A stretch of DNA of 64,000 nt, from NCBI GenBank assembly GCA_963727805.1, contig CAVSHF010000003.1, forward strand, positions 736,001 through 800,000, in the 5' to 3' direction. This document shows, in pieces, positions 7,272 to 62,615 of the stretch. The stretch's first letter is position 1. Each line of letters starts with the position of its first letter. The translations under genes and the position numbers were made by a program. Below the pieces are notes generated by a model. That model made no database searches, had not been told where the DNA came from, and saw nothing but the letters and a program-made list of their open reading frames with translations. This DNA is from an uncultured Nitrospiraceae bacterium (GTDB lineage Bacteria; Nitrospirota; Thermodesulfovibrionia; Thermodesulfovibrionales; Dissulfurispiraceae).

Positions 7272-7996
7272 CTACGTTTTTCCATCTCCTGCAGCACTGA
7301 GTGCACCTGGTCGAGTAGGCCGGTGGAATCGCACCACCAGCCCCTCACAGATTCCGTACGTGAACCTCTCGATTCATACGGCTCGTGTCAATCATCAAGT
7401 TGAGTCTTTGCAGTCTCAACCATACACATTGAGCGATAGTTCCTCCTGGTCACCCAGTTGACTGGTACTCTTTGTGGATTGACCCATCCCCTTCCCTCCA
7501 CGGCTTATTATCACCGCTTCATCGGTACTATTGGACGGTCCGACCCCTTCACCTGCATCGATACTTTCCCCCTTCGTTTGCACTTATAGGGTTTTCTCTT
7601 AGCATCAGATGAAGAGTTCCCGCGTTCCACACAGGAGCCTAGATCAGCTTCATGCCGCCTCTATGCCGGACGCCGTTCAGGCAGTAAACAGGTATCTCCT
7701 GAACTAATCCTGATGCAAAGTAAGAACATCAGTTTTGACGTCGTCCTTTTCCTTTCGACACCTCATCAGCGGTTCGCTTACGCTCATCTCTCTGATCCAT
7801 CCCTGACACGATCTAGTCGTGCCTTTTCCTTTAACGCTCACCACCGGAGCCTTTCGACTACAGCAGCTTAAGGTGGGTTGAAGCCTGCTCCTGCAAGCCG
7901 GCTTCGAGGGGCCAACCCTCATCTTCCTGTGCAGCCTCGTGGCGCACTTACTCGGGAATCCTTCAGAAACTCCCGACGGCTCACTCCACTCTCCAT
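7272..7996 (-). pseudogene. Short Tat-signal-like ORF interrupted by intron copy 1 (exons 7948-7996 and 7272-7309)
   Basis: AGGAGG RBS; the spliced product is MESGVSRREFLKDSRVTGALSAAGDGKT*, containing the twin-arginine motif SRREFLK. Confidence 0.55.
7310..7947 (-). mobile_element. ORF-less group II intron, copy 1 (638 nt)
   Basis: 5' end GTGCG; domain V GAGCCGTATGAATCGAGAGGTTCACGTACGG; domain VI ending CTACTCGAC; short domain IV with no RT ORF; matches 57354-57991. Confidence 0.92.
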
Positions 7997-41000: not shown

Positions 41001-41206
41001 TAGATTACAATCAAGGAATCGGCGGGAAACTTCCCCTTGATCGACAGCACCTGTCTCGATAGCTGGAAGAAACCTTGGATAATGAGCGGTTTCTCTGCGG
41101 CGATGACTTTAGGAGTAGAAACAATCGCCCAACAGAAGATATCCTGAATAATAGTTCTGATGTCGGTCTAACTTGATTGTAATTCGACGCGCATTATAAT
41201 ATCAGT

Positions 41207-41413
41207 ATGATCAGAAATAAGGATATCGCATTACAAGTTTTCTTTTTTGTCCTCGGGATGATGCTTGTGGTCTATGGCTGGCGTTCTTTTTTCAAGGGCC
41301 TGCTAGATATCGAACACAACTGGGTGCGCCTCGCCTTAGGTTTTTTCGCAGTGGGCTTGGGTCTTTTTATTTTTTATCTGCTCTTTCTGAGGAAATCAAA
41401 AAGAACCAAATAG
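41207..41413 (+). CDS. Small two-TM protein
   Basis: Two hydrophobic helices and a basic tail. Confidence 0.5.
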   Translation: MIRNKDIALQVFFFVLGMMLVVYGWRSFFKGLLDIEHNWVRLALGFFAVGLGLFIFYLLFLRKSKRTK

Positions 41414-41649
41414 AAATCTTGTGGAGTTGCTGCAGTTTTAAGAACATGGCAATCAGATACCCTGTCCCTGGTCTGGACATGAAAGGTTTTCTCTCCCCTC
41501 GATGAACACCGGTAAAATAAAACGGCTTCACCGCGTCGGGGCAATCGCAATGATAACTAGGACACATTAGCCGCGGAACCCTGCGCTATCCGACACCAAA
41601 CTTGACGTAAGGGCAGTTCGTAGCCCTTGTTGGTCCTCGCATGTCTTGC

Positions 41650-42873
41650 TTACTCTCCAATCACCTGCCCGAACGGAATCCAGGTTTTGCCGTTGAACTT
41701 GATCAAAAACAACTCTTTGATTGGTTGATAATCGGTCGGACTTGTCGTTATTCTGATTCCGGGACGGAGCATCCCGAGCTCCAGATCTAGACTTGCAGCC
41801 TGCTTAATCACGTTCGCGCGGGTCAGATTGTCACCGCACTGCTTCAGCACTTCAACCAGCGCCTGCGCACGTTCGTAGCCAGCCACGTTGTTTTGATCTC
41901 TAATACTTGCCTGAGGATTGTATTTGTTCATCCAGTCGAGAAACTCGCGCACTGCTGGGTCTTGGCGTGCTTGCATATGCGTCCAACCCTTAGAGCGTGC
42001 GTTCGAGATTATTCCAACGGCTTTATCGAGGCCAGCGGGATCTAGGAAAGCAGCAATCGAGAGGGATGCGTTGGGAATGAATTGCTGTGGATGCCAGCCG
42101 ATGTCGTAGGCTATGCGAATCGCTTGGGTAGCAAACTTCCCCCATGCCAGGTTAATAAAAATATCGGCGCCAGAACTTTTTAGCGCCACGATATGCGAAG
42201 TGAGGTCTGCATCAGTATACTCGTAGGGAACTTCCTTTATGATCATCGTTGACGCCATATCCCCTAGACCATCGTGTATACCGGCAAGATACTCTTTGCC
42301 CGCATTGTTGTCAGCGTAAAGTACCGCTATTTTCGTATCAAGTTTGTTTTGAAGTATATACTTCGCGTAGGACAGTCCCTCCGTCCGGTATGTAGCGAAG
42401 AACCCCATTGTCCACGGGAAATGCGTCGGATCGTCCAAAGCCGCTGAGCTACTCTGGAGGAAAAGTTGCGGCACTTTCTTGTCATTTAGGTATATGCGGA
42501 TCGCCAGGTTGCTCTCAGTACCAAAGGAACTGAAGATCAGCAAAACCTCTTCCTGTTCGACTAGCTTATGCGCCAGTTCGATAGACTTGTTAACATTAGA
42601 GCCATCATCAACGGTTACAAAGTTGATCTTGCGACCATTTATTCCGCCACGATCGTTGATCATCTGAAAGTATGCAGCCTCTGCACGCCCTACAGCTCCG
42701 TATTCTGAGAACAGACCCGTGTAAGGACTGATATTGCCGATTTTGATCTCGGCGTCCGTGGCACCTGTGTCGTATTTCTTCTGAGCCACTGCAGGTGTAG
42801 CTACGAGCGCGATTGCGAACAGCGTCGCCGCAATATTGCGAAGTATGGAAAAGTTCATGTTCACTGCCTCCAT
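41650..42873 (-). CDS. Branched-chain amino acid ABC-type substrate-binding protein (orphan)
   Basis: KKYDTGATDAEIKIG and GGINGRKI motifs. Confidence 0.85.
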   Translation of the reverse strand: MEAVNMNFSILRNIAATLFAIALVATPAVAQKKYDTGATDAEIKIGNISPYTGLFSEYGAVGRAEAAYFQMINDRGGINGRKINFVTVDDGSNVNKSIELAHKLVEQEEVLLIFSSFGTESNLAIRIYLNDKKVPQLFLQSSSAALDDPTHFPWTMGFFATYRTEGLSYAKYILQNKLDTKIAVLYADNNAGKEYLAGIHDGLGDMASTMIIKEVPYEYTDADLTSHIVALKSSGADIFINLAWGKFATQAIRIAYDIGWHPQQFIPNASLSIAAFLDPAGLDKAVGIISNARSKGWTHMQARQDPAVREFLDWMNKYNPQASIRDQNNVAGYERAQALVEVLKQCGDNLTRANVIKQAASLDLELGMLRPGIRITTSPTDYQPIKELFLIKFNGKTWIPFGQVIGE

Positions 42874-43711
42874 TCCGTAAAGACCCGCCTATGGTTGGCT
42901 TAGCCTATAGTTATCTATTGCTGAGATATTTTATAGACTGTATCGACATATAGAAATCAAGTCAAGCAATATACAAAATAGTAAATTCAATTCATGCCTC
43001 CATGAATCCATAGAAAAGATGCCACCTCTCCTCAATACAAATTGAAGCGACAATTGCCGAATGAAACAAATGGCCGGAGAGCATCGCCCGTGGCACTAAC
43101 TTTTGGGTGGTAAACCACATTTCTCAGCTATACAGATTGAGGCATGTTACGAGGAGTCAATCGACAAAGCCTCCATGAAAGTTTTTTTTGGTAATCACCA
43201 AATTCCTAATACTGGTAAAATCGATTGGTTTCAGGTGGTACCAATATTCTGAACCGACGCGACCCATACTTGATTTCCGGAAGAAAGCTTGTGTAATAAG
43301 CCATGTCCTTGCGGCAATGACTATAAGTTGTTATCAGTGGTACGTTCTAGATGTCACCAAGAAGAACCACCTTGGAGCTTGACAATCTACACAGCAGTAC
43401 GAGTTAAGAATCTGATTATGATAATTACGTTCGGAATACAACATCCCTGGTAAGATGCTGAGGTATGTATAGTAAAGTGCAGGCATTTTTCGGTAGGCTC
43501 TCGCAGAATTGATTTCCGGTAGAAAGCTCGTATCATTCGCTGCTTCCCCACAGCGATGACTTTAATTAGGAAGCTAGTCACCAGTCTCAATATGGCTGCC
43601 TCGAAGATTTGACATGCAATCGATCCTGTCATTCTTCTGCCGTGAGTGAAGGGTTCTCTCGGAAACAAGCGGCGATGCAAAGCCGACCCAGTAACGCTTT
43701 CGTGCGGAAGC

Positions 43712-46787: not shown

Positions 46788-47191
46788 GATTTAATCCGGA
46801 ATAATTCTTGTTTAGAGTGTATTAATAAAGCTATAGCGTGTCAAGCCGCGCTGGAGAGCAAAAGCAACCTTACTTTCTTTGAAAATGAGAAGTGAATCCA
46901 TGTTTTTTAAATGCATTTACAATACATGTAAACAAAAATACTAACTACCGCATCTTAATGAGGCCAAACCGGTCTTACTCAGTAATCACAAAGTCGTCCT
47001 TGACACACTAGAGACTTTAAGCAAGCTCTAAAATATTGTGCTATAGTTGCAGAAAGATAAAAAAAGGGAATTTGCGGCGTTAAGTGTATGCCAAAACAGG
47101 GACAGCTGGAGCAGACAGAAAAACAGAATTACACTGATACAGACACGGACAGATACAGGCCGAAATTAAGCAAGGAAAGGAGGGAAACCTT

Positions 47192-48057: not shown

Positions 48058-49596
48058 ATGGCTAATAGGGGTATATCCATGCGGATGGTTAGAGAAATCT
48101 TAAGACTGTATTATGGGCTGCATCTTGGCAAACGACAAATAAGCCGGTCCTGCAAAGTGTCGCCGAGCACAGTAGTAGATTATGTCCAGAAGGCCCAGGA
48201 TAAGGGCATTTCATGGCCACTTCCTGAGGACCTTGATGACGCAAAGCTTGAAGCTATGCTCAGTGAACGCAGTAGTCGGAAGACAGCCCTTCGTCCGCTG
48301 CCCCCAATGGAGGAGATTCATCGCGAGCTTCGCAAAAAGGGCGTCACCCTTCAACTGTTGTGGCTCGAATATAAAGAACGGCATCCTGAGGGGTATCAGT
48401 TTACGCAGTTCTGCGAGCATTATCACCGCTGGGAGAAAAACCTTGAGATAAGTTTACGGCAGGAGCATCGCGCCGGCGAGAAGATGTTCATCGACTTTGC
48501 CGGCAAAGGGATACCCATCGTCGACTCTTTCACAGGCGAGAGCACCGAAGCTCAGATCTTTGTGGCAGTCCTTGGAGCAAGCAACTATACCTATGTCGAA
48601 GCGCTCCCATCGCAGAGTCTCCCCTTCTGGATCAAGGCTCACATCAATGCTTTTGAATACTTTCACGGTGTGAGCCAAATCCTTGTCCCGGACAATATCC
48701 GAGCAGCCGTATCGAAGTCCTGCCGATACGAACCCGACCTCAACCCCGTATATCTGAGTCTGGCGCAGCACTACGGTACCGCCATTATCCCTGCACGTCC
48801 GTATAAACCAAAAGATAAGGCAAAGGTGGAAGCCGGAGTATTGCTGGTCACCCGATGGATCATTGCGGCATTGAGGAATCACACATTCTTCAGTATCGAG
48901 GAGCTTAATGCCAGCATCAGGGAACTTCTGGAACGCTTGAATACCCGGAAGTTCAGGAAACTAAACAGTACCCGCAGAGAACTCTTTGAGACCCTTGAGA
49001 GGCCGTATCTTAAGCCTTTGCCCGTTGAGCGGTATCGATACATCGACTTCAAGCGGCCAACGGTTAACATCGATTACCACGTCGACGTAGCGGATCATTA
49101 CTACAGCGTTCCTTACCAGCTTCGTGGCAAAAAGTTAGAAGCCTTCCTCACTGTCGATACGGTGGAGATCTTCCACAATAACAATCGCATTGTGACTCAT
49201 CAACGCAGCTTCAAAGCAAGAGGATATACGACCATTGCTGAGCACATGCCGAAAGCGCATCAGAAGCATCTTGAGTGGACTCCATCGAGGATCATCCACT
49301 GGGCGGAGCAGACCGGCGCTGCCACAGCAAAGCTTGTCGAGACCATCCTGACGACGCGACCGCATCCGGAGCAGGGATTCAAATCCTGCATAGGCCTGTT
49401 GAGACTCGGCAAGAAGTACTCGCCGGAGAGACTGGAAGCAGCCTCTATGCGGGCGGTCCATATCAAGGCTTATTCATACAAGAGCGTCAAGTCGATGCTT
49501 GAAACCGGATTCGACCGTACTCCGATCACCGAACAAAAGGAGGTGACCCCGCCCTTATATCATGACAATATCCGCGGTAAAGAGTACTTCAGTTGA
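48058..49596 (+). CDS. istA: IS21 transposase
   Basis: FIDFAG, VPDN and PKDKAKVE motifs. Confidence 0.95.
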   Translation: MANRGISMRMVREILRLYYGLHLGKRQISRSCKVSPSTVVDYVQKAQDKGISWPLPEDLDDAKLEAMLSERSSRKTALRPLPPMEEIHRELRKKGVTLQLLWLEYKERHPEGYQFTQFCEHYHRWEKNLEISLRQEHRAGEKMFIDFAGKGIPIVDSFTGESTEAQIFVAVLGASNYTYVEALPSQSLPFWIKAHINAFEYFHGVSQILVPDNIRAAVSKSCRYEPDLNPVYLSLAQHYGTAIIPARPYKPKDKAKVEAGVLLVTRWIIAALRNHTFFSIEELNASIRELLERLNTRKFRKLNSTRRELFETLERPYLKPLPVERYRYIDFKRPTVNIDYHVDVADHYYSVPYQLRGKKLEAFLTVDTVEIFHNNNRIVTHQRSFKARGYTTIAEHMPKAHQKHLEWTPSRIIHWAEQTGAATAKLVETILTTRPHPEQGFKSCIGLLRLGKKYSPERLEAASMRAVHIKAYSYKSVKSMLETGFDRTPITEQKEVTPPLYHDNIRGKEYFS

Positions 49597-49689
49597 AAAT
49601 CGGCTCTATGGGACAGCCAATAATCGACTAAGAGGCATCGACCAAGGGGTAAGTATACCCCACAAACATACTATAAGGAGGAGACAGCG

Positions 49690-50439
49690 TTGAATCACAC
49701 TATCGAAAAACTCTCACAGATGAAGCTCTACACAATGGCAACGGCAGTGAAGGAGCAGCTTGAAAATCCTTCCCTTAGCAAACTGAGCTTTGAGGACAGA
49801 TTCTCCATGATCATAGACCGGGAGTGGACTTCCAGGGAAGACAGAAAACTCACCAGAAGACTCAAGTCGGCACGCCTGAGGACCAATGCCACTATCGAAG
49901 ATATCGACTATCAGCACCCCAGGGGATTGGACAAGTCGGTCGTCAGATCCCTGGCTTCTTGTCAGTGGATCTCTTCTCACCATAACGTGATCATCACCGG
50001 GCCGACCGGCATCGGCAAGACTTACCTTGCTGAGGCATTTGCAAACAAAGCCTGCCGAGAAGGATTCACTGCTGTACAATACCGGTCAACAAGACTCTTT
50101 GAGGAACTGAGGATCGCAAAAGCTGACGGCAGTTTCTTCAAGGTCCTCGGAAGACTTGCAAAGACGGACCTCCTCGTCATTGACGACTGGGCCGTGGACC
50201 CACTGACCGAAGATGAGCGCGGCCACTTCCTGGAAGTCATGGAAGACAGATACGGACTGAAGGCGACAATCATTACCAGCCAGTATCCCGTCGCCAAATG
50301 GCATGATCGCATCGGAGAGCCTACAAAAGCCGACGCCATACTCGACAGGATCGTCCATAACTCACACAAGATAGCTTTGAAGGGAGAATCGATGAGAAAA
50401 ACTAAGACAAACTTGACGAAAGGCGAACGCTCTTCGTAA
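49690..50439 (+). CDS. istB: IS21 helper ATPase
   Basis: GPTGIGKT, LLVIDDW and DAILDR motifs. Confidence 0.95.
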   Translation: MNHTIEKLSQMKLYTMATAVKEQLENPSLSKLSFEDRFSMIIDREWTSREDRKLTRRLKSARLRTNATIEDIDYQHPRGLDKSVVRSLASCQWISSHHNVIITGPTGIGKTYLAEAFANKACREGFTAVQYRSTRLFEELRIAKADGSFFKVLGRLAKTDLLVIDDWAVDPLTEDERGHFLEVMEDRYGLKATIITSQYPVAKWHDRIGEPTKADAILDRIVHNSHKIALKGESMRKTKTNLTKGERSS

Positions 50440-53569: not shown

Positions 53570-54174
53570 GCCGTCTTTTCCTTCTTTCCGTTTCATATGT
53601 GCAACCTGACCATTTAAAGTGTGAAAGCGCATGCTCCCCGCGGACTTAGCTGCGACAGGCTATCCTATGCTGTTCTGCCTTGCCGACCATTGCTTGCTAT
53701 TCTGCTATGGTCCAGCGTCGGAGACGCTGGACACAGGTGTTGCCTTCAACCGATTTCATCGTAAACTCTTTTTTGATTGTAGTCATAGATTTAAAACTAA
53801 GACTACAACTTATGTCGGTTTTTTACAATATATGGGCGAAACAGGGCTATCGCATAATAGATGCCAAACAGGCCAAAATGCCAAATTGGTCTGAAAAGAA
53901 AGTGTAGCATTAGAGAAGGATTAAGTTTATCTTAACTTGGAACGGTGGGTTTGTGCCTGAAACAAACACCTATTGCCGTCACATCGTCAAAACAGGGGCG
54001 AATCTTCCCCTGGGACTTCAGTGAACAGTGACTCAAAAAACATTGAAATTTCATAAAAAGAGGCATACAATTAATTTGCCATGAATAAAGAAGACATAGA
54101 CCATCTCATGAAGTTCGCAAGCGTATTAATGTCCACCGCAATTGAGATTATAAATATGCAGTTCGAGGATAAAA

Positions 54175-54633
54175 TCAATCTTGATCTCCAAGGTTATTAA
54201 TAACATCCTCTTGCTTTGATCCCAAGTGAAGGGCATGCCAATTGCCAAAGCCTTCCGTTGGGTTGAAATACTGACTCTCAGCTTTCTTCTGGTCTGGCGC
54301 TGATAAAGGCAATACGCCGGTAGAAATAGTCAACTCACCCACTACTTTATCAGTATAAAATACGATATGAAGAGTTGCCGAATGTCTCTTGTCGATGAAT
54401 ATTCTACCTCCCGTATCACCTTCGTCCTTTCGGAACAAGCCAGCCCCTAGTAAGCGAACAACATGAGAGTCGTTGTTAATGCCAACCGTGATTCCAGCAA
54501 AGTGCATCGGCCAACATACCGATCCTTTCGGAGAGACTTCGTCAGCTGCTGCATTGCTAGAATAGATCAGAACAAAAAATATACACAATACAGCAATCTT
54601 TCTCATTAAGATATATGGATCCCCTCTAGGCAT
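54175..54633 (-). CDS. Hypothetical exported protein (array gene, possibly truncated)
   Basis: Signal peptide MRKIAVLCIFF...AAA. Confidence 0.6.
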   Translation of the reverse strand: MPRGDPYILMRKIAVLCIFFVLIYSSNAAADEVSPKGSVCWPMHFAGITVGINNDSHVVRLLGAGLFRKDEGDTGGRIFIDKRHSATLHIVFYTDKVVGELTISTGVLPLSAPDQKKAESQYFNPTEGFGNWHALHLGSKQEDVINNLGDQD

Positions 54634-54710
54634 TAAGCACGTTTAGCTGATTACAATATAACATTTCTTTTTCATCTCTCTGCAACTAAAGCACAATTAT
54701 TAAGTGCTTT

Positions 54711-54768
54711 CTACTTATAATCGCGAGTCCGCTCGCTACGCTGCAGATGCGATGTTACGACTGGTAAT
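54711..54768. repeat. Two-box repeat, copy A
   Basis: CTACTTATAATC-N29-ATGTTAC-GACTG-GTAAT. Confidence 0.8.
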
Positions 54769-55019
54769 GCTCAAAGCTGAGTTGCCAATTCGCTTACTGT
54801 AGTTGTTGTGTGCACTCCTTTTCATGATCCTCCAGATAATGGCAACAGCTAACCGAGGCACAGGGCAATTCCCCTTCCGGTGGTGGCCTCCGGGAGAAGC
54901 ACCACCGGAGTGCGGCCAAACCAGAAAGAGATAGTAGCATTGCCAGCAGTCCCACGCCGGCCAGCATAATAACTAGGCAGCTACCACTAGCTGCCCTGCC
55001 ACTATCAGAAGCCTGATCG

Positions 55020-55514
55020 TTACTGACCGTGCCTTACACATAACCCACTTACTGTTATCTTCCCCTTATTAGATCCCTTTTTTGTATTAAATTTGCGCAA
55101 CACCGCATCTCGACGCTCTTTGACTCGAAGTTCCAAAATAGATATTGTCGTATCCACCCTTTCTTTTGAAAAGGATTGCTCAAGTAACGAAAGGTTCATG
55201 TTGACACGATATAGCAAATCTTCCAACGGTTCAGGTTCTTGCTTGGAGAGTACTTCATCCAAGGTCTTCCAGCCCATTGCACAGTCAATATCATCAAATT
55301 GATAATACCTATCAGGAAAAATAATTGAGGCCATTTCCAAGAAATCCTGCCCGCGATCCCCGACAAATCTAAAAATTAACGAGCCACATTGAAAAACAGC
55401 CACTGCATTGCCAAAGCTGTGCTTGTCATACTCATGCGACAATAGCCGCATGCCTTCTAACCCCTGGTTATGCATTGAATTTATTATTTTATCTACAAAT
55501 GGGTTTATAGTCAC
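55020..55514 (-). CDS. Hypothetical protein (array gene)
   Basis: 164-aa ORF containing SFGN...RFVGDRG. Confidence 0.6.
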   Translation of the reverse strand: MTINPFVDKIINSMHNQGLEGMRLLSHEYDKHSFGNAVAVFQCGSLIFRFVGDRGQDFLEMASIIFPDRYYQFDDIDCAMGWKTLDEVLSKQEPEPLEDLLYRVNMNLSLLEQSFSKERVDTTISILELRVKERRDAVLRKFNTKKGSNKGKITVSGLCVRHGQ

Positions 55515-55622
55515 GAGAAATTTGCCTCTGCTGCAATTATGTCAATGCATGCGGTATTGTCGAAGTAGACGGTAAAATGTTTGAATCTATCAGTTCCCCC
55601 CCTGAGCCCTTGAATGAGGCTG

Positions 55623-55994
55623 TTACAAAGTCATTATTTTCACTTTATTCGAAACAATCCTTATTCTATTAGTGCAAGCTCTACCACTGCCAAAGAGTCG
55701 GAGAGTATACTGTTGGAATTTGCGGTCAGCAAAGACTATTTCTTTTTGCAGCACACGGTCAATTGAGCCTGCACCGATATTATCTATGACATCATTGAAA
55801 TCGATCTTCTTGCTGATATTTTGGACATTGTGAAATTCCGCCCGAACTTTCTGTCTTTTAGCTGCCCAACCCGTACCAGGGTAAATTTCTGCTTCTATTA
55901 CTATTTTCGTTTTATCTTTCTTTGCGATGGGAAAGATATAACAAATACTAACAATATTGCCATCATGCCAGTAAGGTAGTGATATTTGTTTCAT
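55623..55994 (-). CDS. Hypothetical protein (array gene)
   Basis: 123-aa ORF with N-terminal WHDG. Confidence 0.6.
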   Translation of the reverse strand: MKQISLPYWHDGNIVSICYIFPIAKKDKTKIVIEAEIYPGTGWAAKRQKVRAEFHNVQNISKKIDFNDVIDNIGAGSIDRVLQKEIVFADRKFQQYTLRLFGSGRACTNRIRIVSNKVKIMTL

Positions 55995-56070
55995 TATTCT
56001 TATTTATAACGATTAATATATTGAAGTCCTTTTCATCTTCTGCAACTATACCATAATATTTCGGGACTTT

Positions 56071-56128
56071 CTACTTATAATCTCGATCGCGCCATCCGGA
56101 GTGAAGACGCGATATTTCTAGCGGAAAT
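56071..56128. repeat. Two-box repeat, copy B
   Basis: CTACTTATAATC-N29-ATATTTC-TAGCG-GAAAT. Confidence 0.8.
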
Positions 56129-56137
56129 GCTCAGGGA

Positions 56138-56614
56138 TTATTGTTGGTTGCCCGTCTTTTTTTCTTTGTGGTTAACCACACGAGTCTGTGCAATTCTATC
56201 ATGAAGTGTCCTTTTTTCGGGATCGAAGAAAGCCATAATATACCCTGAAAATAGTAGTACGGCACTAATGATTTCTGCCAAGAAGCGGTAAAGCGCTGAA
56301 CCAAAGGGAACCGGCTCACCTGATGCCATTACGACTTTAATCTTTAGGATGCGTTTCCCGACGGTCATGCCGGATTTAGAAACCATAATCGTTGAATAGA
56401 GGCAGGCACCGATAATTTGCAGTAATATAAACGAACCTATCATCATCATGAAACGCTCGTATGAATTAACCGAGGCCTGGAGACTATTTGTGGCAAAGCC
56501 TATCGTGGCAATAAATGCGAGCAGTGGATAAATTACAGCTATGATACAGGTATCTATTGCTTTTGCAATTAATCTACGACCAATTCCTGCATATTCAAAT
56601 TGATTCGAATCCAA
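56138..56614 (-). CDS. RDD family membrane protein
   Basis: YAGIGRRLIAKAID, GMTVGK and LHDRIAQTRVV motifs. Confidence 0.9.
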   Translation of the reverse strand: MDSNQFEYAGIGRRLIAKAIDTCIIAVIYPLLAFIATIGFATNSLQASVNSYERFMMMIGSFILLQIIGACLYSTIMVSKSGMTVGKRILKIKVVMASGEPVPFGSALYRFLAEIISAVLLFSGYIMAFFDPEKRTLHDRIAQTRVVNHKEKKTGNQQ

Positions 56615-56715
56615 TTATTATTCCTTATTTATGCTTACCGATAAATATACGAAATCCGCTATTCCCATCTTACTGCAACTATATCACAATATTACATCGG
56701 AACTAATCGTAGCTT

Positions 56716-56773
56716 CTACTTAAAATCTCGATGGCGGCAGTCGTAGTCAAGACACTATGTTTCAGTCGGAAAT
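56716..56773. repeat. Two-box repeat, copy C
   Basis: CTACTTAAAATC-N29-ATGTTTC-AGTCG-GAAAT. Confidence 0.8.
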
Positions 56774-56840
56774 CAATTATATCTTGTGTCTAAAATCAAG
56801 TGGTACGTTTTCAGAGCAGAGATCCGTTTCTGGTCTACCT

Positions 56841-57275
56841 TCAGTTTGTGCTTGTTTCATATTTTGAGATAATAGTCTTTAATAAATCTATTTTAGGATG
56901 TTCGGGATTGTGTTGTGCCAAGGCTGAATATAGCGCATATAAAAAGGAGGCTTTTGAATATCTTTGTTTTTCAAAGATGCGTAGATTATAATCTTCTGAC
57001 TTCATCAATATTTGCAAAGAAAGAAGCCCTCGGTCAATAGCATTCTCAAAATTGTTTTGTCTCATGTAATGACCAAACAGTTCTTCAGTGGCGATCTGAT
57101 AAGTTAAATCATCAGGATATTTTTCGTTCAGGGTCAAAACTTTTTCAAGATAATATATTGCGGAAGTGAAATCGCCGCGATCTCTGCTTCGAAAAGATTT
57201 TCCGAGGAAACGCGCGGCCTTGAATCGTGAATAAAAAGCCTTAATGGAACCGACAAATGCGCTCATTCTTTTCAC
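56841..57275 (-). CDS. Helical TPR-like protein (array gene)
   Basis: GDFTSAIYYLEKVL and NNFENAI TPR-like helices. Confidence 0.55.
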   Translation of the reverse strand: MKRMSAFVGSIKAFYSRFKAARFLGKSFRSRDRGDFTSAIYYLEKVLTLNEKYPDDLTYQIATEELFGHYMRQNNFENAIDRGLLSLQILMKSEDYNLRIFEKQRYSKASFLYALYSALAQHNPEHPKIDLLKTIISKYETSTN

Positions 57276-57309
57276 TATAGCACACCTTCATGAACAGAAC
57301 TAATAGTAA

Positions 57310-58005
57310 CTACTTATACTCAACACCCTGGGAGCACAGCGCATTACTCGATGGTCGAGTAGGCCGGTGGAATCGCACCACCAGCCCCTCACAGATTCCG
57401 TACGTGAACCTCTCGATTCATACGGCTCGTGTCAATCATCAAGTTGAGTCTTTGCAGTCTCAACCATACACATTGAGCGATAGTTCCTCCTGGTCACCCA
57501 GTTGACTGGTACTCTTTGTGGATTGACCCATCCCCTTCCCTCCACGGCTTATTATCACCGCTTCATCGGTACTATTGGACGGTCCGACCCCTTCACCTGC
57601 ATCGATACTTTCCCCCTTCGTTTGCACTTATAGGGTTTTCTCTTAGCATCAGATGAAGAGTTCCCGCGTTCCACACAGGAGCCTAGATCAGCTTCATGCC
57701 GCCTCTATGCCGGACGCCGTTCAGGCAGTAAACAGGTATCTCCTGAACTAATCCTGATGCAAAGTAAGAACATCAGTTTTGACGTCGTCCTTTTCCTTTC
57801 GACACCTCATCAGCGGTTCGCTTACGCTCATCTCTCTGATCCATCCCTGACACGATCTAGTCGTGCCTTTTCCTTTAACGCTCACCACCGGAGCCTTTCG
57901 ACTACAGCAGCTTAAGGTGGGTTGAAGCCTGCTCCTGCAAGCCGGCTTCGAGGGGCCAACCCTCATCTTCCTGTGCAGCCTCGTGGCGCACTTTCTTCCG
58001 GAATT
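57310..58005. repeat. Two-box repeat, copy F, split by the group II intron
   Basis: CTACTTATACTC-N29-ATG | intron | TTTC-TTCCG-GAATT. Confidence 0.75.
57354..57991 (-). mobile_element. ORF-less group II intron, copy 2 (638 nt)
   Basis: Same sequence as 7310-7947 with different flanks; GTGCG...CTCGAC ends. Confidence 0.92.
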
Positions 58006-58149
58006 CATTAAAGACACTTGGTTCATGCACTACCAGCAACCTTGTTTTCGAATTTCCAAAAAGTATGGTGAGTGTCGCTTGTGCGTCTTTAAGCGTGATA
58101 ACAAGATTCCTCAGATAATTGATAGTCAGTATACACGTTTACAAATGCT

Positions 58150-58527
58150 CTAAGGGCAAATACCTATGCAACTAGCACCAGTCAGGCTAGCATTTGAAAT
58201 TATCTTTTTCACAAACTCCAGATACTCAGGTGAAGAAATATCGATCCCGATACCGACAGTTTGTACTCCATTAACAAGGCACTTTGTGTGCCTCTTTACA
58301 ATTCCCTCAAATATAGACCGATCATCTTTGATTGTCAGTGTCAGTGTCAGTGTAACAGGAGTCCCTATAGGTGGAGGCATGCGTCTTGGAATAAGAACAC
58401 CGTGTTTTGAAATATCGATAGTTCTCATTTCATAGGTCATACCGTCATATTCTAATAGTGCACTAAGTCTCCTATCGTACCTCGGACTTCTTCTCTTCTC
58501 CGAACCACCAAACCGTCCCTTTGTCAT
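58150..58527 (-). CDS. PilZ domain protein
   Basis: EKRRSPR and DISKHG motifs. Confidence 0.8.
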   Translation of the reverse strand: MTKGRFGGSEKRRSPRYDRRLSALLEYDGMTYEMRTIDISKHGVLIPRRMPPPIGTPVTLTLTLTIKDDRSIFEGIVKRHTKCLVNGVQTVGIGIDISSPEYLEFVKKIISNASLTGASCIGICP

Positions 58528-58995
58528 AACCCTGTCATCTCCGTATTCATTTACTGCTGATTCATTACTATAAAGATATTGTCTCCTAATCGGCTTTGGT
58601 TATCAAGGAGAATTTACAATTAATTGGGGAAAAGTCTTACTTTCTTTATGTTCGGTGATGTGTGTCACGAATGACACCCACAAAATTACCCTTGGGAGGA
58701 GACAACCCTGAGCCGCTGTTTGCCTGAGAGAAAAGTATCAGAAGTTCAAATGCGTATTTTTCGGCGTTTAAGGACACCCATTCCGGATCATCGCAGCACC
58801 ATATCGGACAGTTCATGAGGGCCCCAACCAATCACGTCTAATTTCCTTAGAAGCGAATCAGCTTGTGGAGATTCTCTCTGTGGGGTTCACTTGATACCCA
58901 GCGCTTCATCCTTCTTGCCAAGAATGTTCATTACGAACGTAACTATCGAAATTAGATTCTCAATAACTACTCCTACGCATCAAATATGGTATAAC

Positions 58996-59150
58996 CAAGT
59001 TATGGACGGTTGTTAACCGCTCATAAAGGGGCAGGAGGACGTTAACTACAGGGTCATTGAATCCTTTTATCAGTCAGTCCCCTGTCTCCCAAAAGCCATG
59101 ATAAGTTGATAGGGCTAAGAGCTCTTGTAAACATGGAGATATGGTTGGGA
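58996..59150 (+). ncRNA. Predicted IS110 bridge RNA
   Basis: TGGTATAAC extended -10, then a 5' hairpin and two stem/internal-loop domains (59028-59089 and 59096-59136) in the non-coding left end. Confidence 0.65.
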
Positions 59151-59189
59151 GGCATCCTGCCTAAGATCCTATGTGGGAGGTGCTTGGAA

Positions 59190-60386
59190 ATGAGCAAAGC
59201 ATTCATTGGCATCGATGTGTCAAAAGAGCATTCGGCTGCCCAAGGCATCGATAGTGACGAAAAGAAGCTTTTTTACTTAAGGTTTTCGATGGACTCAGCA
59301 GGGTTTGCAGAGCTTCGGACTGCGATTAAAAGATGCGCTGTGAACCTGGATGATATTGCTGTTGCGATGGAGTCCACCGGCTGTTATCATATCAACCTCT
59401 TTTCCTTCCTATGTGCGGAGGGACTTCGTTGTGTGGTAGTAAATCCGCTTCTAATATCCAAGTTTGTTCAGGGGTCATTGAGAAAGACCAAGACAGATAA
59501 GAAGGATGCGATGACCATAGCGCAGTTTCTTCTGAACAATGAAAAGAAGCTTTACTCCGTGACCGAGTCCCAGGATGCACAGGATCTCAGGGATCTGGCC
59601 AGAGAACGGGAGTCTCAATCATGGATGATTGCAACACTGAAGAATGACCTCAAAAGGTTGCTGCAGAGCACTTTCCCTGAGTTTGAGACACTCCGCAAGA
59701 ATATTTACACTAAGACGATGCTGAACTTTCTTACGCAGTATCCTTCGGCCAGATTAATACGGGAGGCAAAGAGAAAAGATATCGACAAAGCGCTCATCTG
59801 TCCCGGGGAGAAGCGAAAGAGAGTACAGATTAGTGCTGACGATCTTATCAATGCGGCAAAGCGTTCGGTGGGCTCAGCTGGTATAGCAAAGGAGCTTATT
59901 GTCTCTGAGAAAGCAACAACGATCCTATACCTTGAGGAAAAGTGTGAGAAGATTACCGAGGAATTGGTGGATGCGTGTGAGGCAACACAGATCGAAGATC
60001 TTGAGATAATGAAGACTCTCGATGGAGTGAAAGACATTACTGGATCGACCTTTTTAGCAGAGATGGGAGAGCTATCCAATTACAAGTCATATAAGAGTTT
60101 GATAGCTTTTATGGGGCTTGATCCATCTACCAATCAGTCAGGGCAGCATGTGGGGCCAAGCAAAATATCGAAACGAGGGAATCGTCATCTGAGGCGAGTC
60201 ATCCATATAATGACAATGTGTTCAATAAAGTCTGACAATATATTCAGACAATACTATCTTAGAAGGATAGCCGAAGGATTGCCTAAGATGAAGGCATTAA
60301 TGGCGACATCTCACAAACTGATCAGAGTGATCTTCTCTATGCTTTCACATAGAACGACTTTTAAAAAGGAGGTGGCTGCTGCATAG
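59190..60386 (+). CDS. IS110-family recombinase/transposase
   Basis: IGIDVSK, AMESTG and KTDKKDA (DEDD); GLDP...QSG...ISKRGN; GGAGG RBS. Confidence 0.95.
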   Translation: MSKAFIGIDVSKEHSAAQGIDSDEKKLFYLRFSMDSAGFAELRTAIKRCAVNLDDIAVAMESTGCYHINLFSFLCAEGLRCVVVNPLLISKFVQGSLRKTKTDKKDAMTIAQFLLNNEKKLYSVTESQDAQDLRDLARERESQSWMIATLKNDLKRLLQSTFPEFETLRKNIYTKTMLNFLTQYPSARLIREAKRKDIDKALICPGEKRKRVQISADDLINAAKRSVGSAGIAKELIVSEKATTILYLEEKCEKITEELVDACEATQIEDLEIMKTLDGVKDITGSTFLAEMGELSNYKSYKSLIAFMGLDPSTNQSGQHVGPSKISKRGNRHLRRVIHIMTMCSIKSDNIFRQYYLRRIAEGLPKMKALMATSHKLIRVIFSMLSHRTTFKKEVAAA

Positions 60387-60391
60387 TTGAC

Positions 60392-60445
60392 TTATAATCG
60401 TGAGTGCGCCCAAAACGTTCAGGATGCTATGTTACGAATGGTAAT
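60392..60445. repeat. Two-box repeat, copy D, right part (left CTAC at 58973-58976)
   Basis: TTATAATC-N29-ATGTTAC-GAATG-GTAAT; the spacer resembles copy A. Confidence 0.8.
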
Positions 60446-60902
60446 GTTTAAAGTGGAGCTTCGCCTCTTCAGGGGTATAATAAGCACGAAGTATTCCGGA
60501 AATCACAAGGTCCCCCAATAATTCCACGGGCACTGCTTGTCCGACAGAAACGCACTCTCTATGAAAATTGTCACCTGCAAGAAACTGAATTTCGCCATGC
60601 CTTTCAATTTGAATCGCCCCGATCTTGTGAACAATACGTCCCTCTGGCAACACTTCTTTGAGAATGGGAGCAATCGTTTGCGGTGTCAGCGGTATTACAA
60701 TAAATCTACTGTCTTCATTCCATTCGCGTGTGAAGGGCGGTAGGACATTTTCAATGACGCCTGGAATAGTTCCGAAGTGCATCTCGCTCATTGCTTCTAT
60801 ATCGCCTTCAAGTGCAATGTGCGCATCTCCAGCAAGCATGCGCATAAGAGCGGTTAAGAGTGCTGGCTTATCTCTTGGATCGAGGATATAAGCTTTCTTC
60901 AT
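60432..60902 (-). CDS. Hypothetical protein (array gene)
   Basis: 156-aa ORF with IALEGD and GDNFHREC; ATG 10 nt after TGCTATAGT. Confidence 0.65.
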   Translation of the reverse strand: MKKAYILDPRDKPALLTALMRMLAGDAHIALEGDIEAMSEMHFGTIPGVIENVLPPFTREWNEDSRFIVIPLTPQTIAPILKEVLPEGRIVHKIGAIQIERHGEIQFLAGDNFHRECVSVGQAVPVELLGDLVISGILRAYYTPEEAKLHFKHYHS

Positions 60903-60951
60903 TTTTTCTGAAACTATAGCATACTTTTCTCACCAGAACGAATGGTAGCTC

Positions 60952-61009
60952 CTACTTAAAATCAACATCGTGGGGACACGTCTCATTGTACAATGTTTCT
61001 ACCTGAAAT
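60952..61009. repeat. Two-box repeat, copy E
   Basis: CTACTTAAAATC-N29-ATGTTTC-TACCT-GAAAT. Confidence 0.8.
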
Positions 61010-61100
61010 AGAGAGGCGTACCCTATAATCAGCAACAACCCCTGTATTTAAGAATTTTGGGATATTGAAATTCCAAACAAGATCTAAGGCCGCCGGGAAA

Positions 61101-62615
61101 TTACTCAACATCGTACCTTTTCATCCAGTTTGAGAGCGTCTGGTAATTTGGGAGGCCCAGGAGTTTGGCCATTTCAGTCTTGTTCTTGCCAGCCTCTTCA
61201 GAGGCGCGTTTCAGATAGTGGCGGGCTACATCCGACATAAGGGCTGCAAGGCTGAACCCGCTCCCCAGGCTGCGGTTGAGAATTCTGCCTTTGCCCTTTT
61301 CAGTGCTGCTCAGAGGAAACAGTGCAGCGCGTATATCATCGGCCTCAATTGTCCGGCCGGGCGTCCATATCGCTGCCCGTGAAATAGTGTTGAAAAGCTC
61401 GCGGATGTTTCCAGGCCAAGGATGTTGCTGTAGAATATGCCTAGCTCCCGCGGAAAAGGTTTTTCTCTCCCAGCCCGGTTTGCCCTCGAATTGCCCATTT
61501 ATTTTTATAAGGATATCGTCGATCAGTGGACTGATATCACCGCGCCGTTCGCGCAGTGGAGGCAGCTGCAGCACTCCCACTGCTATGCGATGGAACAGGT
61601 CCTCCCTGAAGCGGCCCGAAAAAACCTCCTCTATAAGGTTGCTGTTGGTTGCCGCGATAATCCTTACATCGATGTCCTGGCATTTACTGGATCCCACCTG
61701 CGTGACTACGCCCTCTTCTATGGCACGCAAGAGTTTCACTTGGGCCAATAGTGGGAGCTCTCCGATCTCATCAAGAAATAACGTACCTTCGTTGGCCTCG
61801 ATAAAATGGCCGTCACGCGCGCTCGACGCCCCCGTAAATGCTCCTTTAGTATGCCCGAAGAACTCCGATTCAACCAGTTCCGGAGGGATAGAACCGCAGT
61901 TGACTGCAACAAAGGGCTTATCGTATCTCGGACTCGATGTGTGTATTGCCCGTGCGAAAAGCTCTTTGCCAGTCCCGGATTCTCCCTGGAGAAGGACTGG
62001 CACATCGTGTACAGCAAGTCTTCGAGCCTGTGCAATAACCCTTTCCATGGCCTTGCACCGATGGATTATGGAAGCGAATTCAGGCGACTCAGGCGGCAGC
62101 CCACGGGTCATCTTCAGGATTTCATCATCCGGATACCGGGACTCGTCATTGCCATTTGAAGCGGTTATATCGAAGGGCAATGAAACGGTTCGGACACCGT
62201 ATTTTCGTGAAGTCTGGATGATCTCAGCGGGATGGACTGTTTTTGACAAAAGTATCCATGCTGCCACCATGGCGAGTGATCCGGAGCTCAGATGGAATGT
62301 CTTGCGGAGGGATTTTTCCCCGAGTCTGCGGTTCACATCTCTTATAGCTGAGACAGCAGCATCATAGGTTTCCTTGAACTGATCATAAGCAGACAGATCG
62401 ACATGGTATTTCATGACCTTGATCCGGGTCACTGACTTGAGCCAGTCAATATATCCTTGCTCCTCTTCTTCAGCGAAAACGGACAGCAGGACGATATGTG
62501 TAAAGGGCCGATTAGTCAAGGCTTCCCCGATCGGCCCCAGATTTTCTCCGTGTTTTCTCCCGCAAGCGGCGAGATCGTTTTTACCGATCCAGGCAAACAA
62601 GACGTTGTTCTTCAT
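61101..62615 (-). CDS. Sigma54-interacting AAA+ regulator with RtcR/CARF-like N-terminus
   Basis: GESGTGKE, GAFTGA, WPGNIREL and C-terminal HTH; N-terminal AWIG..DL and HLSSG. Confidence 0.85.
   Translation of the reverse strand: MKNNVLFAWIGKNDLAACGRKHGENLGPIGEALTNRPFTHIVLLSVFAEEEEQGYIDWLKSVTRIKVMKYHVDLSAYDQFKETYDAAVSAIRDVNRRLGEKSLRKTFHLSSGSLAMVAAWILLSKTVHPAEIIQTSRKYGVRTVSLPFDITASNGNDESRYPDDEILKMTRGLPPESPEFASIIHRCKAMERVIAQARRLAVHDVPVLLQGESGTGKELFARAIHTSSPRYDKPFVAVNCGSIPPELVESEFFGHTKGAFTGASSARDGHFIEANEGTLFLDEIGELPLLAQVKLLRAIEEGVVTQVGSSKCQDIDVRIIAATNSNLIEEVFSGRFREDLFHRIAVGVLQLPPLRERRGDISPLIDDILIKINGQFEGKPGWERKTFSAGARHILQQHPWPGNIRELFNTISRAAIWTPGRTIEADDIRAALFPLSSTEKGKGRILNRSLGSGFSLAALMSDVARHYLKRASEEAGKNKTEMAKLLGLPNYQTLSNWMKRYDVE

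Follow-up and report, generated by a model that had tools for sequence, protein, structure and literature searches.

A directional two-box DNA repeat between accessory gene modules of an uncultured Nitrospiraceae bacterium, with possible exchange at box 1

We analysed a 64,000-nt stretch of an uncultured Nitrospiraceae genome (GenBank assembly GCA_963727805.1, contig CAVSHF010000003.1, positions 736,001 to 800,000), in which small unrelated genes are separated by copies of a repeat of about 60 bp. We call this whole stretch the window and its contig C3. The repeat consists of two unlike boxes at a fixed distance from each other, and it belongs to a family whose members point one way within an array and have no conserved fold. 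Blocks of DNA shared between loci, species and metagenomes end preferentially in box 1, one whole unit is present in two arrays, and mobile elements of three kinds target fixed positions in the site. Our preferred reading, which we hold with moderate confidence, is that these are genus-restricted, double-stranded sites set in one direction at the joints of accessory modules, with exchange likely taking place in or beside box 1.

Box 1 is CTACTTAWAATC. With at most one mismatch allowed, it has five matches in the window (54711, 56071, 56716, 57310 and 60952) against 0.66 expected, and five matches were reached in 1 of 100 shuffles. The full two-box pattern is also found at five places, 54711, 56071, 56716, 60388 and 60952 (C3:790711, 792071, 792716, 796388 and 796952), with a spacer of 29 nt between the boxes at all five. 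An earlier, sequence-only reading of this DNA had listed six two-box copies; the repeat and its 29-nt spacers are real, but two of the copies are interrupted. In copy D, a 648-nt group II intron splits box 2 into ATG and TTTCTTCCGGAAT, and another copy is split in box 1 by an IS110-family element (Table 1). The left half of the latter had been placed at 58973, where the CTAC is instead the conserved left end of the insertion sequence (IS). CCTAC forms the first IS bases in all eight copies of this element, so the true left half is the CTACT at 58967-58971. The start-to-start distance of the two boxes is fixed at 41 nt, about four helical turns, and spacer indels are present in just three of 66 aligned copies. 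The spacers form subfamilies that are 25-100% alike, and conserved single positions recur in them at roughly 10-nt intervals.

An iterated nhmmer profile found 55 copies in the 3.9-Mb genome, clustered at C3:775-807 kb (the window and beyond), C5:1-67 kb, C5:559-567 kb, C4:18-26 kb, C3:28-31 kb and C3:122-131 kb, plus some single copies. The plus-strand array of the window extends past its end, at least to C3:807279, with a further copy at C3:803729. Relatives were represented by one genome per species. A sequence-only covariance model found copies in four of the seven other same-genus species (38, 16, 8 and 3 copies) and weak matches in two other genera of the same family, and there was no copy in the remaining 34 searched genomes. 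A pattern scan of one genome per species matched G003 only, plus two stray matches. In metagenomes, the same pattern pulled 46 loci (47 stretches), 43 of them with significant copies.

The family is a mosaic that includes a 170-nt subfamily and a short AATCACCAAATTCC form. The short mosaic unit, AATCACCAAATTCC-N19-GACTTTCAGTAG, ends in a box 1 variant and occurs at about 25 places, for example at window 43193 (C3:779193), C5:10179 and C5:403416. Most of these units have an ATG and a T-rich run upstream, and the 170-nt subfamily terminates in an inverted form of the same motif. Contig C3 itself begins inside a repeat copy (C3:1-62) whose box 1 starts at position 3, and assembly breaks may therefore tend to fall at members of the family.

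Where adjacent copies lie within 5 kb of each other, the two share one orientation in 24 of 26 pairs for this genome, in 7 of 7 at the loci of relatives and in 26 of 27 on metagenome contigs. The total of 57 out of 60 agrees with the earlier description of a co-oriented array whose sites separate unrelated genes. With open reading frames called crudely, 39 of the 55 copies have a gene end on their box 2 side, and in 22 cases the features run from a gene end through box 2 and box 1 to a gene start, against 8 cases of the reverse order. In the window, the RDD gene has its stop codon 10 nt past box 2 of copy B, and the gene at 60432-60902 has its stop codon within box 2 of the IS110-split copy. 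Intervals between convergent genes hold 16 of the 55 copies. The arrays are crowded with IS elements and also include toxin-antitoxin modules, and the copies are spaced irregularly (127-4197 nt, median 1330), so the regular spacing of CRISPR is absent. Co-orientation and the bias toward gene ends argue for ordered, site-directed growth. A competing explanation is that the repeat is passive or selfish, of the NIME/dRS3, REP or MITE type, and has gathered in the flexible genome without cassette machinery of its own, the breaks in box 1 being by-products of IS110 elements. Random insertion of such a repeat would leave both the 57 of 60 co-oriented neighbours and the gene-end bias unexplained.

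Comparison of copies points to box 1 as the place where contexts change. Long similar right flanks accompany similar spacers (13 pairs of copies), whereas long similar left flanks, seen in five pairs, go with unrelated spacers in four and with a spacer identity of 0.72 in the fifth. The site body is thus tied to the DNA that flanks box 2, and box 1 is where this association breaks. One complete 765-nt unit, with 96% BLAST identity, is present at both C5:565657-566421 and C3:807286-808050; both of its ends are in box 1 and its neighbours differ between the two arrays. To the right of copy A, a paralogue block begins exactly between CTA and CTTATAATC. A VapBC-like block common to G001 (95% identical) ends directly after CTACT, a HicAB block shared with G005 and two metagenome contigs spans from the spacer of one site to the next box 1, and a unit with an Xer-like recombinase, 89-95% identical in G003, ends at box 1. 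For the block-end analysis we used 53 blocks of at least 250 nt and at least 85% identity and counted ends within -150 to +210 of the site. Fifteen of 44 ends fell at site positions 1-16, where a flat spread would give 1.8 per 15-nt bin. The shared blocks and the 765-nt unit support the prediction that gene content changes in whole units with breakpoints in box 1.

In an empty-site comparison, the flanks of isolated copies were not syntenic between species, and an exact 31-mer from the flanking activator gene had no match in the metagenome contigs. In the sequencing runs, which were covered as short contigs, one joint (run X1) links 54749 to 57349 and most plausibly represents a further intron-bearing copy rather than a deletion. 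At C5:65390-65432, a repeat copy has an insert of 40 nt precisely between CTCCTAC and CTTATAATC, which may be the scar of a lost element.

The mobile elements use the site at fixed points. The first type of IS110 element is inserted directly after CTACT of box 1 in all eight of its copies, and a second type abuts box 1, its end ...GTCTA standing beside CTTAAAGTC. A relaxed-threshold Rfam search found no bridge-RNA family in the IS110 element. Near C5:40400, the right half of box 1 is replaced in one copy of the repeat by CCTACACATCA, the bases with which IS110 type 1 begins; this resembles the footprint of an imprecise IS110 loss. The same place has also received an IS5-like element, with duplication of CTAC. 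The group II intron of copy D, which has the same sense as the module genes, has 12 full-length copies in the genome, 12 of 12 in box-2-like sites (TTWC-N5-GRAAT) and four within two-box repeats. A second copy of it in the window, 100% identical, lies in a box-2-like site at 7308-7947 (C3:743308-743947), with a weak box-1-like CTACGTTTTTCC about 40 nt off. The third kind is an IS91-like element of 2.56 kb with eight near-identical copies (e.g. C5:23888-26449), which encodes a Y2 transposase and, upstream of the transposase gene, a tyrosine recombinase. On its left, the flanking DNA ends in GTTC-like tetranucleotides; on its right, the element itself ends in ...GTCCTAC and stands against repeat-like DNA. 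This junction is search-backed in two of the eight copies (C5:26448 and C5:396655) and comes from visual reading in the rest; on a contig from another sample, the junction of the IS91-like element with box 1 recurs at 54715.

Since eight of eight IS110 copies sit at one point of box 1 (and the second type abuts it), exchange at box 1 could be an IS by-product, and it is here that the idea of a passive repeat draws its support. IS110 elements excise seamlessly. The route would be either recombination of one IS copy with another or the movement of composite IS110 units, with seamless excision afterwards; IS110 cuts inside the break zone and could move a module that has an IS110 copy on either side. 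Most block ends are compatible with a break directly after CTACT, allowing for the conservation of box 1, and the repeat-rich relatives G003 and G004 carry related IS110 elements. Near-identical site bodies in unrelated contexts, with sharp edges on both sides, fit a passive repeat as well, as do the mosaic family and the IS-rich arrays. The NIME arrays of Neisseria offer a precedent in which, according to passages of PMC1797815, the repeat is targeted by a transposase-like recombinase. Besides the directional order of the arrays, two observations disagree with it: the near-identical copies, examined by eye, have no terminal inverted repeats or target duplications at their sharp edges, and the left joint of the 765-nt unit is about 10 nt from the IS110 cut. 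We consider a purely passive repeat, the strongest of the rival readings, possible but doubtful.

We also weighed whether the repeat is a diverged attC of a classical integron or CALIN, recombined by IntI. The array-like layout with toxin-antitoxin modules would suit this, and so would the IS110-family element and the group II intron in the sites, both of which are known for attC; the PMC3001079 abstract describes group II introns in attC sites. There are also true IntI genes in the genus, with 387.6 bits in G007 (C6:2028-2969) and 375.5 bits in G005 (C111:1069-2007). In the genome under study, however, the integron integrase profile TIGR02249 reaches 86.5 bits at best against a cut-off of 265, so there is no IntI there by this profile. 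The two-box repeat is not in the IntI loci of G005 and G007, and G007 has no copy genome-wide. The IntI open frames of G007 and G005 are unusually long (468 and 463 amino acids) and have no obvious repeat array alongside.

The structure of the site also speaks against attC. RNAalifold found no consensus structure in 66 copies and, for the 170-nt subfamily on either strand, nothing beyond one 6-bp hairpin. The best hand-drawn helices are 46% paired (spacer stem) and 78% paired (box 2), and single-stranded DNA folding of 12 copies gave z-scores from -2.15 to +1.55. The co-variation of the box 2 arms that had been noted earlier is seen in the six local copies but not across the family, where the T/A-A/T pair is unpaired in 29 of 61 copies; as there is no conserved hairpin or other structure, the argument from co-variation for a structured site falls. 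The AAC/GTT ends of attC are absent from the site sequence. Group II introns in attC sites generally lie antisense, whereas the intron here has the sense of the genes. What is integron-like is the co-oriented array, the unit in two arrays and the enrichment of block ends in box 1. Given no shared fold, no IntI of its own and IntI loci of relatives without the repeat, we read the site as duplex DNA and not as attC, and consider an IntI-recombined attC, already largely refuted, very improbable.

Other known repeat classes were compared with the site as well. A relaxed-threshold Rfam search found nothing in the repeats, and neither box has an Xer 11-6-11 dyad (the arms of box 2 are at most 7 bp, with a 5-nt gap). 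Together with the lack of a fold and the irregular spacing, this leaves standing the earlier view that the site is not attC, dif or CRISPR. As regards NIME/dRS3 repeats, box 2 has a dyad, though an imperfect one. None of the five terminator-like sites in 54000-61200 falls in a repeat, and the ends of the examined IS elements do not match it. We rejected REP/RAYT, as there is no palindrome and the Y1_Tnp genes belong to ordinary IS200 copies that are not flanked by repeats; IS200 as the parent of the repeat was rejected too, its ends being unlike the repeat. Translated from its reverse strand, box 1 gives D-F/Y-K-stop, and some frames appear conserved. A coding reading was dropped: the open frames that end in repeats run from only 13 to 165 codons, and column conservation has no third-position relaxation in the D-F/Y-K-stop frame.

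At many copies, a TGnTATAGT promoter-like box sits between box 1 and the next start codon. In the window there are copies of it at 54680, 56673 and 60908 besides the one in Table 1, and a solitary one without the repeat at 47035. A promoter, TAGAAA-17-TATAGT with TG, is predicted at 56073..56045, and for copies A and B the -35-like TAGAAA of the TGnTATAGT promoter is provided by the left end of box 1. The repeat could accordingly be a regulatory or architectural protein-binding element (an operator with part of a promoter, or a nucleoid-protein site) that is kept by selection and is a target of mobile DNA incidentally. The lack of a fold, and hence the reading as duplex DNA, the fixed 41 nt between box starts and the conserved spacer positions roughly every 10 nt are all consistent with bound protein. 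However, the distance from box 1 to the promoter-like box varies from 14 to 27 nt, the promoter-like box also occurs alone, and the 16 of 55 copies between convergent genes do not fit. Such an element would also leave the synteny breaks in box 1 and the whole-unit copies unexplained, and we think that it is an improbable account of the family.

The sequence-only reading had supposed a recombinase acting in trans, with no candidate in the window. The window does hold a recombinase, the IS110-family DEDD transposase inside one site, and no dedicated enzyme could be tied to the repeats in the genome, its relatives or the metagenome contigs. Besides two Xer proteins and the IS91-linked copies, the tyrosine recombinases of the genome are a 324-aa Xer-like protein, a Mop-domain protein and two fragments. 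The 324-aa protein (C5:27486-28460) is itself encoded inside a unit; close relatives of it occur in G003, while G004 and G001 have fragments. The Mop-domain protein (C3:91776-92867, equal to L083:3777-4868) is a tyrosine recombinase fused to a Mop/TOBE molybdate-binding domain. Its gene is followed by two weak repeat copies facing each other (L083:4980-5210), and it has orthologues in five of the seven same-genus species, including G002 and G007.

Several observations weigh against exchange at box 1 by a site-specific enzyme. The 765-nt unit differs over about 10 nt at its left joint. Six of the 15 ends in box 1 stem from three comparisons that probably concern one locus, 29 of the 44 block ends lie away from positions 1-16, the ends spread over positions 1-21 and not at one bond, and a break at 55065 lies away from the repeats. 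As for the enzyme, the 324-aa protein is present in the repeat-free G007 and was not found in the repeat-bearing G005, the 81 open reading frames on repeat-carrying metagenome contigs yielded two tyrosine recombinases and one IS110 fragment, and no recombinase co-occurs cleanly with the repeats in the genome, the same-genus species or the metagenome contigs.

If modules are nonetheless exchanged at the duplex two-box site, as we favour, the breaks would arise by site-specific exchange rather than by general recombination. The body of the site would travel with the gene whose 3' end faces box 2, in the manner of attC, and the recombining enzyme would act in trans. Candidate enzymes are the IS110-family recombinases that cut directly after CTACT, the 324-aa Xer-like recombinase and the tyrosine recombinase of the IS91-like element. 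A bolder proposal, which we put forward tentatively, is that the integron principle was invented here a second time, independently: a Nitrospirota lineage would stockpile modules and swap them at a duplex two-box site, through an RNA-guided IS110-family or an Xer-like recombinase in trans and not through IntI.

The module genes of the window are on the minus strand, as had been described, but the IS110 transposase gene is a lone plus-strand exception among the genes between sites. Pfam matched the RDD protein (4.9e-27), the PilZ protein (2.1e-10) and, weakly, the TPR protein, and six open reading frames had no family. A defence screen with PADLOC gave one weak match only, of the RDD protein to PD-T4-6 (E 1.8e-06). 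At 48058-50439, between the oppositely directed groups of repeats, lies an IS21-type pair (a transposase with rve and Mu C-terminal domains, and IstB).

Table 1. Repeat copies, inserted elements and genes of the array, in window coordinates.
Feature	Position	Strand	Remarks
Copy A (box 1, 29-nt spacer, box 2)	54711..54768	+	nhmmer E 1.3e-11
Copy B	56071..56128	+	pattern and profile match
Copy C	56716..56775	+	pattern and profile match
Copy D, left part: box 1 (1 mismatch), spacer, ATG of box 2	57310..57343	+	
Group II intron without open reading frame, 648 nt, in box 2 of copy D	57344..57991	-	Rfam RF01999 109.8 bits, RF00029 45.4 bits
Copy D, right part of box 2 (TTTCTTCCGGAAT)	57992..58004	+	
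IS110-split copy, left half of box 1 (CTACT)	58967..58971	+	identical junction in 8/8 IS copies
IS110-family element (transposase 59106-60386)	58972..60392	+	Pfam DEDD_Tnp_IS110 1.6e-37, Transposase_20 2.8e-22
IS110-split copy, right part: TATAATC, spacer, box 2	60393..60445	+	
Copy G, last of the window	60952..61010	+	box 1, pattern and profile matches
Opposite group: 41057, 43271, 43510, partial copy 39479	41057..43569	-	group ends at katG 3' end
Promoter-like box, ATTGTGCTATAGTTGCAG family, TGnTATAGT	56040..56057	-	between box 1 and next gene start
Module genes	54175-54633, 54794-54967, 55020-55514, 55623-55994	-	
Module genes	56138-56614, 56841-57275, 58150-58527	-	RDD, weak TPR and PilZ, in this order
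Module genes	58646-58831, 60432-60902	-	

The site resembles REP/BIME elements in being an abundant host repeat that is a specific IS110 landing site, with CTAC/GTAG at the site edge. REP and BIME are targets of IS110-family elements such as IS621, ISPpu9/10 and ISPa11. Unlike these, the repeat described here has no palindrome, no RAYT was found in the genome, and the Y1 transposases are those of ordinary IS200 elements. In Acinetobacter plasmids, pdif sites are 11-6-11 Xer sites of alternating orientation that bound gene modules. The likeness lies in modules bounded by short recombination sites, and the pdif recombinases are host-encoded and act in trans; the difference is that our sites have no 11-6-11 dyad and point one way.

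The closest known systems are integron/CALIN arrays and the neisserial NIME/dRS3 arrays. As in the former, the accessory genes that the co-oriented sites separate are unrelated and mostly small, with toxin-antitoxin pairs among them, the body of a site is linked to the gene upstream, whole units recur in different arrays, and IS110-family elements and group II introns have settled in the sites. Unlike integron/CALIN arrays, the genome has no IntI and the site has no single-strand hairpin or AAC/GTT core; its length is fixed where attC has a conserved structure, many modules have their own promoter-like box, and large genes occur in some modules. NIME (dRS3 plus RS arrays), as far as passages of PMC1797815 describe them, are similar in having a short site with a small dyad and a variable centre, mosaic and dynamic arrays, and a repeat targeted by a transposase-like recombinase, and they are proposed there as recombination sites that promote the exchange of flanking genes. 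In the same passages, dRS3 is a 20-bp inverted repeat and the arrays are non-coding, unlike the two dissimilar boxes 29 nt apart, the strong co-orientation and the genes between sites found here.

If modules truly move at these sites, uncultured Nitrospirota-type bacteria would have a gene-capture platform outside the integron family, and the set of known ways in which bacteria build flexible genomes would be wider. It would also be a natural case of programmable IS110 recombinases, an IS91-like element and a group II intron specialising on one host site. Even if the repeat is passive, the family would illustrate clearly how a safe-haven repeat influences the places at which genomes break.

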